From a virus (Duplodnaviria; Heunggongvirae; Uroviricota; Caudoviricetes): 11,597 bases of DNA. Shown piece after piece: positions 1 through 10,583 of this stretch. How positions within the stretch are numbered: the first letter of the stretch is position 1; each line of letters starts with the position of its first letter. The stretch spans positions 1 to 11,597 of IMG/VR virus record IMGVR_UViG_638341087_000009, one strand, 5' to 3'. A program made the position numbers and the translations under genes. The notes under the pieces are model-generated. The model was not told where the DNA came from. It was given only the letters and a program-made list of their open reading frames with translations, and made no database searches.

Positions 1-478
1 ACAGAGAATCCACCCATAACACTGTTTTTGGTTTTAACTGTTCCGCGTGCGCTGAGCCGCATTCACCGCATCACAAAATTCACTTTAAAAAGGGCGGCAG
101 AGCAGCCACGGAGTAAAACTGATACCGCCAAACGTCACCAGAAAATTGATAACAGAGGGCGTTGCAGCGGGGTTGTCACTTAAGCGTATGGTCAACCTGA
201 CAACCCGGTGTCCTCAACGGGGAAGGAATAACCCCGCCATACTTACCGCCGCGCCATTTCGCGGAGTGCCACAACCGGAAGCGCACGGTCGACGAAAATT
301 TAACGACAGGCTATCTATGAACCAGCTACCTCGCCGTGCGCTTTCGCGTTATGGTCTGACTTTTCAGGGAAATATCCTTTCAGTAAACTGTCAGTGCCGG
401 ATGCTCACCCGTGTCCGGCGCACGTACTCCACCTCACCCGTGGAGAACTCCTTAATCACCAACCCTCAGGAGGGTGAA

Positions 479-8211: not shown

Positions 8212-8316
8212 ATGTCGGATGATATCTCACTGGCAATGGAAGGTGCGCTGGCTGTTATTGCTGTTGTGGGCGTTTACTGCCTGGTTGTGTTTTTGATGGA
8301 TCGACTAGGGAACTAA
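8212..8316 (+). CDS. Unannotated small membrane peptide (34 aa): MSDDISLAMEGALAVIAVVGVYCLVVFLMDRLGN
   Basis: Strong SD AAGGAGGG (8201-8208) 3-4 nt before the ATG. One transmembrane segment with a charged C-terminus. Confidence 0.45.
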   Translation: MSDDISLAMEGALAVIAVVGVYCLVVFLMDRLGN

Positions 8317-8324
8317 ATTCATTA

Positions 8325-8346
8325 CGATATGGGAATTCCCATATCG
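8325..8346. repeat. 22-bp perfect palindrome CGATATGGGAATTCCCATATCG
   Basis: Exact inverted repeat with no spacer, centred on GAATTC, between the small-peptide gene and the hok promoter. Confidence 0.8.
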
Positions 8347-8358
8347 GGTAAAAACGGT

Positions 8359-8386
8359 TTGCGGTAAAGCGAGAGTTAAGTAGAAT
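8359..8386 (+). promoter_or_regulatory. Candidate promoter for the hok/mok mRNA
   Basis: TTGCGG (8359-8364), 16-bp spacer, TAGAAT (8381-8386). Predicted start near 8393 gives an mRNA of about 420 nt to the terminator at 8812, similar to known hok mRNAs. Confidence 0.4.
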
Positions 8387-8440
8387 TGCTGCGGGCGCTT
8401 GAGGCTGTCTGCCTCGGGCATGCCACCGTAAGGCAGACAG

Positions 8441-8512
8441 AGAAAAGCCCCAGTTAACATTACGCGTCCGGCAAGACGCTTAACATTAATCTGAGGCCAT
8501 ATCTATGCTCTA
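8441..8512 (-). ncRNA. Candidate Sok-like antisense RNA (about 70 nt)
   Basis: Weak minus-strand promoter (TTGCCT, complement of 8543-8548; 17-bp spacer; TAACCT, complement of 8520-8525). Transcript would be antisense to the mok-frame SD and ATG (8493-8507). It would end in a minus-strand hairpin (arms 8491-8497 / 8447-8453, inner stem 8464-8468 / 8475-8479) followed by UUUUCU. Structure-based inference only. Confidence 0.3.
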
Positions 8513-8561
8513 CACACGTAGGTTAGCCTCTTACGTGCCGAAAGGCAAGGAGAAGCAGGCT

Positions 8562-8717
8562 ATGAAGCAGCAAAAGGCGATGCTAATCGCCCTGATCGTC
8601 ATCTGTTTAACCGTCATAGTGACGGCACTGGTAACGAGGAAAGACCTCTGCGAGGTACGAATCCGAACCGGCCAGACGGAGGTCGCTGTCTTCACAGCTT
8701 ACGAACCTGAGGAGTAA
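8562..8717 (+). CDS. hokD: Hok/Gef-family type I toxin (51 aa), closest to HokD/RelF; in-frame Mok-like extension from ATG 8505
   Basis: MKQQKAMLIALIVICLTVIVTALVTRKDLCEVRIRTGQTEVAVFTAYEPEE is the Hok family signature (transmembrane helix plus ...TRK.LCE..IR.G..EVAAF.AYE). AAGGAG (8547-8552) lies 9 nt before ATG 8562. The upstream in-frame ATG 8505 with its own GAGG gives a 70-aa form, as in chromosomal mok genes. Confidence 0.85.
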   Translation: MKQQKAMLIALIVICLTVIVTALVTRKDLCEVRIRTGQTEVAVFTAYEPEE

Positions 8718-8785
8718 GAGACCCGGCGGGGGAGAAATCCCTCGCCACCGCTGATGTGTCAGGCATCCTCAACGCACCCGCACTT

Positions 8786-8812
8786 AACCCGCTTCGGCGG
8801 GTTTTGTTTTTT
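8786..8812 (+). terminator. Intrinsic terminator of the hok transcript
   Basis: Stem AACCCGC / GCGGGTT with TTCG loop (8786-8803), followed by TTGTTTTTT. Confidence 0.65.
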
Positions 8813-8884
8813 CTGGTCGTTCTGGTTTACAATCCATCCGTCAGCCTGAACAACTGGCACCTGCTGCGCCAGCAGAGAAAACAG

Positions 8885-9163
8885 ATGGCGCACGATACCA
8901 AATTTTACAATTCGGATAACTCTGCCGCCCCTGCCAGCAGGCACGGGCGGCGTTCCCGCACTTTCAAATCTGACTGGTTCCAGCATCCCCCATGCACTGA
9001 AGAACAGGCCGAGTGGCTAATTCAGTGCTACCGCAGACACGGATACGAGATTAAGAAAGCCCTCAGCCTCGATTATCGTCACTGGATAATCTCCGTCAGG
9101 CTTCCTTACTCCGAACGACCACCGCGTCCGTCCCGCACATTCCAGCAACGCATCTGGAGGTAA
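8885..9163 (+). CDS. Hypothetical protein (92 aa), Rem-like by position
   Basis: ATG 8885; the track ORF from 8756 would run through the terminator. The order hok, small protein, DUF968 protein, Q matches my recollection of Qin prophage hokD-rem-ydfU-quuQ. Weak SD. Confidence 0.5.
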   Translation: MAHDTKFYNSDNSAAPASRHGRRSRTFKSDWFQHPPCTEEQAEWLIQCYRRHGYEIKKALSLDYRHWIISVRLPYSERPPRPSRTFQQRIWR

Positions 9164-9164
9164 C

Positions 9165-10211
9165 GTGCGGGTATTACTTCGACCTGTTCTGGTACCGGAA
9201 CTCGGGCTGGTGATCGTTAAGCCGGGCCGTGAATCCATGCCGGTATTCCACAATACCCGGGTACTGGTGGAGCCGGAACCGAAAAGCATGCGTAATCTGC
9301 CGTCCGGGGTCGTTCCTGCCGTTCGCCAGCCGCTGGCGGAGGATAAATCATTACTGCCATTTTTCAGCGACGAACGAGTGATTCGTGCTGCTGGTGGCGC
9401 TGGCGCATTGTCTGACTGGCTGTTGCGCCATATTAAATCCTGCCAGTGGCCACACGGCGATTATCATCACAGCGAAACCGTCATTCACCGTTATGGTACC
9501 GGCGCAATGGTGTTGTGCTGGCACTGCGACAACCAGCTGCGCGACCAGACCTCCGAATCACTGGAACATCTGGCTCAACAAAACCTGGCAGCCTGGATGA
9601 TTGACGTCATACGCCATGCAATGAATGGCTCGCAGGAGCGTGAATTATCTCTGGCTGAATTATCCTGGTGGGCGGTCCGCAATCAGGTGGCGGACGCGCT
9701 ACCGGAAGCGGTATTACGTCGTTCGCTGGGGTTGCGTGCGGAAAAAATCCGCTCAATGTACCGTGAAAGCGACATCGTACCGGGAGAGCAGACCGCCACC
9801 AGCATACTGAAGCAGCGCACAAAAAATCTTGCGCCGCTGCCTCACGCTCACCAGCAAAAACCGCCACAGGAAAAGACGGTGGTCAGCATTGCCGTTGATC
9901 CTGAGTCTCCGGAATCTTTCATGAAACGACCTAAACGTCGCCGCTGGGTTAACGAGAAATACACGCACTGGGTGAAGACACAGCCGTGTGCGTGTTGTGG
10001 TAAGCCTGCTGACGATCCGCATCACCTGATTGGTCATGGTCAGGGGGGAATGGGGACAAAATCTCACGATATTTTCACGCTACCGCTGTGTCGGGAGCAT
10101 CACAACGAGCTTCATGCGGATCCGCTGGCGTTCGAAGAAAAGCATGGTTCTCAGGTTGATTTAATTTTTCGTTTTCTTGATCACGCCTTTGCAACTGGCG
10201 TGCTTGGGTAA
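9165..10211 (+). CDS. ydfU: YdfU-like DUF968 protein (348 aa) with a Cys/His metal-binding-like C-terminus
   Basis: GTG start 4 nt after GGAGG (9156-9160). C-terminal motif ...QPCACCGKPADDPHHLIGHGQGGMGTKSHDIFTLPLCREHHNELH.... Length is close to K-12 YdfU (about 349 aa, recalled from memory). Confidence 0.7.
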   Translation: MRVLLRPVLVPELGLVIVKPGRESMPVFHNTRVLVEPEPKSMRNLPSGVVPAVRQPLAEDKSLLPFFSDERVIRAAGGAGALSDWLLRHIKSCQWPHGDYHHSETVIHRYGTGAMVLCWHCDNQLRDQTSESLEHLAQQNLAAWMIDVIRHAMNGSQERELSLAELSWWAVRNQVADALPEAVLRRSLGLRAEKIRSMYRESDIVPGEQTATSILKQRTKNLAPLPHAHQQKPPQEKTVVSIAVDPESPESFMKRPKRRRWVNEKYTHWVKTQPCACCGKPADDPHHLIGHGQGGMGTKSHDIFTLPLCREHHNELHADPLAFEEKHGSQVDLIFRFLDHAFATGVLG

Positions 10212-10223
10212 AAGAGGTGACTG

Positions 10224-10583
10224 ATGCTCATAGATTTGGTTTTACCTTACCCGCCGACGGTGAACACTTACTGGCGACGCCGTGGCAGCACATATTTTGT
10301 ATCAAAAGCCGGGGAGCGTTATCGCCGGGCTGTGGCGCTTATTGTTCGCCAGCAGCGACTGAAATTAAGCCTGTCCGGACGGCTGGCAATAAAAATTATT
10401 GCAGAGCCACCGGATAAGCGTCGTCGTGACCTGGACAATATTCTGAAAGCACCGCTGGATGCGCTGACGCATGCGGGAGTGCTCATTGATGACGAGCAGT
10501 TTGATGAAATCAATATTGTACGTGGTCAGCCAGTATCTGGTGGACGGCTGGGTGTGAAGATTTACAAAATTGAGAGTGAGTGA
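10224..10583 (+). CDS. rusA: RusA-family Holliday junction resolvase (119 aa)
   Basis: ...LPYPPTVNTYWRRRG...PPDKRRRDLDNILKAPLDALTHAGVLIDDEQ...GGRLGVKIY... matches RusA motifs recalled from memory (PPSNNRYY..., PDRRRRDLDN..K...DALT.AG...DD, GGRL). GAGGTG lies 4 nt before the ATG. Confidence 0.85.
   Translation: MLIDLVLPYPPTVNTYWRRRGSTYFVSKAGERYRRAVALIVRQQRLKLSLSGRLAIKIIAEPPDKRRRDLDNILKAPLDALTHAGVLIDDEQFDEINIVRGQPVSGGRLGVKIYKIESE

Follow-up and report, generated by a model that had tools for sequence, protein, structure and literature searches.

Positions 8359-8812 of the window, by which is meant the whole 11,597-nucleotide stretch of DNA analyzed here, contain a complete hok/mok/sok type I toxin-antitoxin locus of the hokD/hokW type. 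With a probability of roughly 0.9, the best explanation for this region is an intact hok/mok/sok module of the hokD/hokW lineage, harbored by a Qin-like lambdoid prophage in its early-right (nin-to-Q) region. A first-pass annotation of the DNA had proposed a complete hok/mok locus together with a Sok-like antisense RNA, and this assignment holds, in that the open reading frames, the leader, and the Sok features could all be placed. The locus contains no IS element, frameshift, or stop codon, and its regulatory elements are all present and in register.

The module itself is already known. The family has been studied for decades, hokD is a label in the NCBI pipeline, and matches are found in Rfam, Pfam, and PHROGs. 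The locus is thus real but ordinary, given that it occurs in most Escherichia coli genomes and that a close homologue has already been characterized experimentally. Its value as a discovery is small: it is a textbook module, routinely annotated, for which functional data on a close homologue have been published.

The hok and mok reading frames

The hok toxin gene runs from 8562 to 8717 on the plus strand and encodes a protein of 51 amino acid residues, MKQQKAMLIALIVICLTVIVTALVTRKDLCEVRIRTGQTEVAVFTAYEPEE, and not of 50 as originally listed. The encoded protein is the same as K-12 HokD, which is toxic. It matches the Pfam family HOK_GEF (PF01848) with 82.9 bits, the cut-off being 22, and PHROG 251, labeled "MokW-like host killing", at 2.8e-33. 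The gene is provided with its own ribosome site, GGAG, and its own ATG.

An in-frame upstream ATG giving a 70-residue Mok-like form had also been noted at first pass. This start codon is indeed present at 8505, and the resulting Mok-like open reading frame, delineated by 8505 and 8717 on the plus strand, encodes 70 residues in frame with hok. A Shine-Dalgarno sequence for mok, GAGG, was read from the sequence at 8493-8496 (plus strand), and its pairing was taken from the predicted folds. The mok start region lies under the predicted Sok RNA, and the translation of hok may be coupled to that of mok.

Codon 47 of hok (window 8700-8703) is TAC and falls inside a UUACGAA motif. According to a recent survey, TadA-dependent A-to-I editing of the hokD mRNA recodes the tyrosine at codon 47 to cysteine. 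The local hairpin surrounding TACG at 8700-8703, a possible TadA editing site, folds no better than its shuffled counterparts.

Promoter, leader, and terminator of the hok mRNA

A candidate hok promoter was read by eye at 8359-8386 on the plus strand. It consists of a -35 hexamer, TTGCGG (8359-8364), a 16-nt spacer, and a -10 hexamer, TAGAAT (8381-8386), and the predicted start of the hok mRNA near 8393 is positioned 169 nt 5' of the hok ATG. This is in keeping with the promoter initially proposed about 170 nt upstream. The candidate agrees with the consensus at eight of 12 positions, which is under the threshold of the consensus scan. The Sok promoter described below has the same score of 8/12, and for this reason both were missed by the scan. 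What the scan did call was a promoter-like sequence, TTAACA-18-TATGCT, inside the hok leader at 8480-8509 (plus strand; 9/12). This site was set aside as probably due to chance because a transcript starting from it would be devoid of the mok start.

The hok leader, from 8393 to 8567, aligns with positions 1-157 of the 157 in Rfam model RF01794 with a score of 114.2 bits (E = 5.7e-26), the gathering score being 59. The model carries the name "sok antitoxin". In every locus examined its match is to the strand that is sense for hok and runs as far as the hok start codon, and such a sense-strand match was observed in 48 related loci, including that of an R1-type plasmid (one example being locus L004, 432-603). 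What the match marks is therefore the hok leader, in which the sequence complementary to Sok resides, and not the antisense RNA itself.

A conserved hairpin at 8405-8440 of the leader (plus strand), characterized by a 10-bp core stem and a 16-nt loop, is evident from the Rfam alignment and the predicted folds. Its arms, CTGTCTGCCT at 8405-8414 and AGGCAGACAG at 8431-8440, form an exact inverted repeat, which extends outward into an imperfect repeat of 21 nt between 8394-8414 and 8431-8451. The first-pass annotation had recognized this repeat but had described it as long-range; the repeat is exact, but the structure is a local hairpin. The true long-range pairing, between 8393-8404 and 8767-8779, had been overlooked. 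At the other end of the transcript, the strong terminator claimed earlier was confirmed as an intrinsic terminator at 8786-8812 (plus strand), formed by a hairpin with a 7-bp stem and a 4-nt loop (8786-8803) followed by a run of T residues.

The predicted Sok antisense RNA

On the minus strand, an antisense RNA of about 71-73 nt is predicted at 8441-8513 on the basis of its fold, the related loci, and the position of a published sokW probe; both of its ends are putative. As reconstructed, its first 15 nt or so form a free 5' tail that is complementary to the mok start region; a long hairpin follows, and the RNA terminates in CUUUU. The predicted fold has an energy of -29.7 kcal/mol (z = -3.9), and none of 200 shuffled sequences folded as well. 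The putative Sok promoter was read from the sequence at 8520-8548 (minus strand), with a -35 hexamer, TTGCCT, at 8548-8543, a 17-nt spacer, and a -10 hexamer, TAACCT, at 8525-8520. Its position is conserved across the loci, and in the R1-type plasmid TTGCGC-17-TATCCT is found at the same place.

Two reagents from the published work on sokW of Sakai prophage 5 could be aligned to the window (PMC8621323). The northern probe YO-592 corresponds to window 8485-8514. Primer YO-421 was used in that study to mutate the sokW -10 element, thereby killing the promoter, and the hexamer it targets corresponds to AGGTTA at window 8520-8525. Among related loci, 37 distinct ones that belong to Escherichia, Shigella, Kluyvera, Photorhabdus, Pantoea, Erwinia, and Citrobacter likewise have a predicted Sok equivalent, 48-72 nt in length, and the stems show compensatory changes. 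The initial placement of Sok at 8441-8512, with a length of about 70 nt, agrees with the present reconstruction of approximately 8513-8441 and with the positions of the sokW probe and -10 element; it is judged to be right because the promoter, the fold, and the conserved equivalents coincide. As read from the sequence, the locus carries a putative cis-encoded Sok with its own promoter and terminator.

A possible folding switch of the hok mRNA

Three elements of the mRNA can be assigned to a possible folding switch, all on the plus strand. The tac element, GGGCGCUUGAGG, forms the 5' end of the hok mRNA at 8393-8404, as suggested by the predicted folds and by the alignment of position 1 of RF01794 at 8393. 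The fbi element, CCUCAACGCACCC, at 8767-8779, pairs with the mRNA 5' end in the minimum free energy (MFE) fold, and its position is conserved and its sequence covaries across the loci. The ucb element, or anti-SD box, AAGCCCCAG, is located at 8445-8455, and its MFE partner is the mok Shine-Dalgarno sequence when the mRNA is closed and tac when it is open.

In the MFE fold of the full-length mRNA (8393-8812), tac (8393-8404) pairs with 8767-8779, and 8447-8455 pairs with the mok ribosome site at 8488-8497. When the 3' end is shortened to give 8393-8760, tac pairs instead with 8445-8451 and the mok Shine-Dalgarno sequence with 8526-8530 in a dcb-like manner. The MFE fold of 8393-8766 differs from that of 8393-8760 in its pairing and displays no switch, and the choice of 3' end thus affects the outcome. 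Folding of the leader had been recommended at first pass as a check, and it yields the tac/fbi closed form for the full-length mRNA and the tac/ucb form with the 3' end at 8760, not at 8766. With that dependence, the predicted folds match the tac/fbi to tac/ucb rearrangement of the R1 model (PMC9841398).

Comparison among the loci also bears on the tac/fbi helix. In nearly all of them, the 12 nt at the 5' end of the mRNA have a complementary segment 45-56 nt downstream of the hok stop codon. Among distinct tac/fbi combinations, tac position 4 covaries with its partner (11 U:A, eight C:G, and four U:G pairs), and position 12 alternates between G:C and A:U. The energy of the tac/fbi duplex relative to shuffled 3' UTRs gives a weak z-score of -0.27 for the window, which is attributed to the GC-rich nature of the UTR and to a mismatch in the window copy. 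Positional conservation and covariation were therefore used in place of the shuffle z-score.

Sequence variation at tac and at the mok start

The mismatch arises at position 4 of the hok mRNA (8396), where the window carries a rare C opposite A8776, and the resulting C·A mismatch in tac/fbi is uncompensated. The energy of the duplex is -17.6 kcal/mol here versus -21.5 kcal/mol in the nearest relatives. An exact 41-mer containing the C occurs in two of 5426 E. coli genomes, with a partial match in a third, whereas the T version occurs in 1966 genomes. The predicted tac/ucb stem leaves position 4 unpaired, so the weakening would be restricted to the closed form. C8396 may consequently loosen the fbi lock and alter the kinetics of activation.

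The variability hot spot of the transcribed region lies at 8499-8518, in which 16 of 20 columns vary among 14 close relatives, hokD/hokW-type loci that are near-identical elsewhere. It takes in the 5' tail of Sok together with the initiation codon and first codons of mok, whereas the hairpin and Shine-Dalgarno sequence beside it are almost invariant in the same 14 sequences. Because target and antisense share the same DNA, changes in the hot spot would keep the pairing in cis perfect and lower the cross-pairing between copies, an argument about specificity drawn from a small sample of 14 sequences. We tentatively suggest, as a joint proposal that we regard as rather doubtful, that 8499-8518 is under diversifying selection that prevents cross-neutralization between co-resident copies and, separately, that C8396 represents a loosened lock. 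If true, the hok/sok of each prophage would be an independent addiction module or lysis timer. The window locus also adds another data point on how antisense specificity is kept apart among co-resident prophage hok/sok copies.

Genomic context

In its gene content the window corresponds to the early region of a lambdoid prophage of the Qin type. The DicF sRNA gene, present in full length at 92-143 on the minus strand (Rfam RF00039, 75 bits), is followed, in order, by genes for an HTH repressor, YdaS/YdaT-like proteins, DnaT-like and P-like replication functions, DUF1627 and DUF551 proteins, and hok. On the 3' side of hok lie a DUF968 gene, an open reading frame at 10224-10583, the counterpart of which is annotated as RusA in a related O55:H7 prophage, and a gene for a DUF1133 Q-like antiterminator. 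Window positions 1-464 and 1055-1647 are 97-98% identical to the dicF/ydfABC side of K-12 Qin, by which the prophage is recognized as Qin-like, and 8868-10211 is 84% identical to its ydfU side. From this synteny on both the dicF and ydfU sides, the locus occupies the same prophage slot as K-12 hokD, which is likewise positioned upstream of ydfU (DUF968) and a Q-like antiterminator. The first-pass annotation had placed hok in a context different from that of K-12 hokD. That view stands only to the extent that relE/relBE adjoins hokD in K-12 alone; the Qin slot is the same, and the flanks are syntenic.

Just upstream of the hok locus, at 8212-8316 on the plus strand, is an open reading frame for a hydrophobic protein of 34 residues, MSDDISLAMEGALAVIAVVGVYCLVVFLMDRLGN, whose ribosome site, AGGAGG, is a strong one. 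The annotation of E. coli O55:H7 lists it as a hypothetical protein, and searches of Pfam and PHROG with it gave no match. A perfect 22-bp palindrome, CGATATGGGAATTCCCATATCG, which contains an EcoRI site, is located at 8325-8346, 13 nt upstream of the hok -35 element. It was considered as an operator of the hok promoter and rejected as part of the module: its presence in only one of the 65 fetched loci indicates that it belongs to an upstream mosaic segment, not to the hok module.

Proposed mechanism and alternative explanations

The following mechanism is proposed on the basis of homology with R1 hok/sok and Sp5 hokW-sokW and of the predicted folds. The weak hok promoter would give rise to a stable mRNA of about 420 nt (8393-8812). 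In its full-length form this mRNA would be locked by tac/fbi pairing between the 5' and 3' UTRs, with the mok ribosome site held by ucb. Slow trimming of the 3' end would remove fbi, tac would then pair with ucb, and the mok start region would become free. During normal transcription of the prophage, a short-lived Sok of about 72 nt, produced from the opposite strand, would bind the freed mok start region, blocking the translation of mok and the coupled translation of hok, and RNase III would cleave the duplex. Should the synthesis of Sok drop, whether by loss of the element, shut-off of transcription, or prophage induction, Mok and Hok would be translated, and Hok would depolarize the inner membrane.

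By analogy with hokW-sokW, the module most likely acts after SOS induction, by helping the host to lyse and the phage to be released. Alternative roles are prophage retention and the exclusion of other phages. Chromosomal hok loci tested by others did not support post-segregational killing, as summarized in a preprint (bioRxiv 10.1101/2025.08.07.668861).

Two rival accounts of the locus deserve consideration. One holds that it only looks complete and is a silent relic, either not expressed or not activatable, as are some chromosomal hok loci. Such a fate would fit with the sub-consensus hok and Sok promoters and with the rare uncompensated change in tac, and the same preprint describes the chromosomal hokA, hokB, and hokC as inactive in post-segregational killing and rifampicin tests (bioRxiv 10.1101/2025.08.07.668861). 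We consider it improbable, however, for a locus that is free of IS elements, frameshifts, and stop codons and has every regulatory element in register, that encodes the same Hok as the toxic HokD, and that is kept in 3257 of 5426 genomes. The 92%-identical hokW-sokW, moreover, is functional (PMC8621323).

According to the other account, the 70-residue in-frame product, an N-terminally extended Hok, would be the real effector and not a leader reading frame serving translational coupling alone. The first Mok codons fall in the most variable segment, 8499-8518, and this position in the hot spot argues against selection on the Mok N-terminal peptide. The idea derives from the fact that mok and hok share one reading frame both here and in Sp5, and from the naming of the product, which is MokW to phage annotators and "MokW-like host killing" in PHROG 251. 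Given that hok is equipped with a GGAG ribosome site and an ATG of its own and that the 51-residue HokW is toxic when expressed alone (PMC8621323), this account is very hard to credit, and an intact hok/mok/sok module with Hok as the toxin is the preferred explanation.

Distribution and comparison with known systems

In the above-mentioned 3257 of the 5426 complete E. coli genomes, where the NCBI label is hokD, window 8300-8850 is represented over 80% or more of its length, with a median of two places per genome and a maximum of nine. The matching phage records number 79, VT2-Sakai (Sp5) among them. Near-identical hokD-type loci were also encountered on short contigs in assemblies labeled Veillonella, Xanthomonas, Acinetobacter, "Candidatus Scatousia", and Haemophilus (L009, L013, L041, L047, and L054). 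Contamination with E. coli or phage DNA, or mis-binning of the contigs, appears to account for these loci, and not genuine hosts.

A close relative that has been characterized experimentally is hokW-sokW of Sakai prophage 5 (the Stx2 phage VT2-Sakai; Takada et al. 2021, PMC8621323), which, like the window locus, resides in a lambdoid prophage and is 92.3% identical in nucleotide sequence over window 8349-8789. The two have identical hok promoter hexamers and an identical Sok promoter, MokW is likewise 70 residues in length and in frame with hok, and the sokW hairpin differs by one loop base. HokW, with 51 residues as in the window Hok, ends in FVDYESEK versus FTAYEPEE. Seven differences, all confined to 8498-8516, are seen over GAGGCCATATCTATGCTCTACACACGTAGG (8493-8522), a stretch that encompasses the 5' tail of Sok as well as the mok start. 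Position 4 of tac is U in Sp5 and C in the window. The two sequences diverge after fbi, and the window terminator is that of K-12 hokD. In published experiments, HokW (51 residues, expressed alone) was toxic and was neutralized by sokW in a manner partly dependent on RNase III and Hfq; mitomycin C lowered sokW and raised HokW in a RecA-dependent fashion, and deletion of hokW-sokW halved phage release (PMC8621323).

The architecture is also that of hok/sok (parB) of plasmid R1. The leader of the R1-type plasmid matches RF01794 with 87 bits, and its in-frame upstream ATG, Sok promoter position, and ucb/mok Shine-Dalgarno logic are as in the window. The predicted fold of the R1-type mRNA shows the same 5'-3' closing helix. 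R1 Hok shares 44% identity with HokW (PMC8621323), the C-terminus being the only part in which HokW and the window Hok differ. The replicon is a prophage here versus plasmid R1, and the Sok hairpin of the window is longer owing to a 16-nt insertion relative to the Rfam consensus.

K-12 hokD (relF), in the cryptic prophage Qin, encodes the same Hok protein as the window and is 98.5% identical in nucleotide sequence over 8548-8811, a region that includes fbi and the terminator. It is, in contrast, a 5'-truncated copy. Homology begins only at 8548, with relE adjoining, and no match to RF01794 was found in K-12 hokD. The boundary with relBE falls at the edge of the Sok -35 element (8548), which leaves K-12 devoid of the hok promoter and leader with its tac and ucb elements, the mok start, and Sok together with its promoter. 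A further gene, rem, separates hokD from the ydfU flank in K-12 and is missing in the window. The window locus displays the form of K-12 hokD before relBE took the place of its 5' half.
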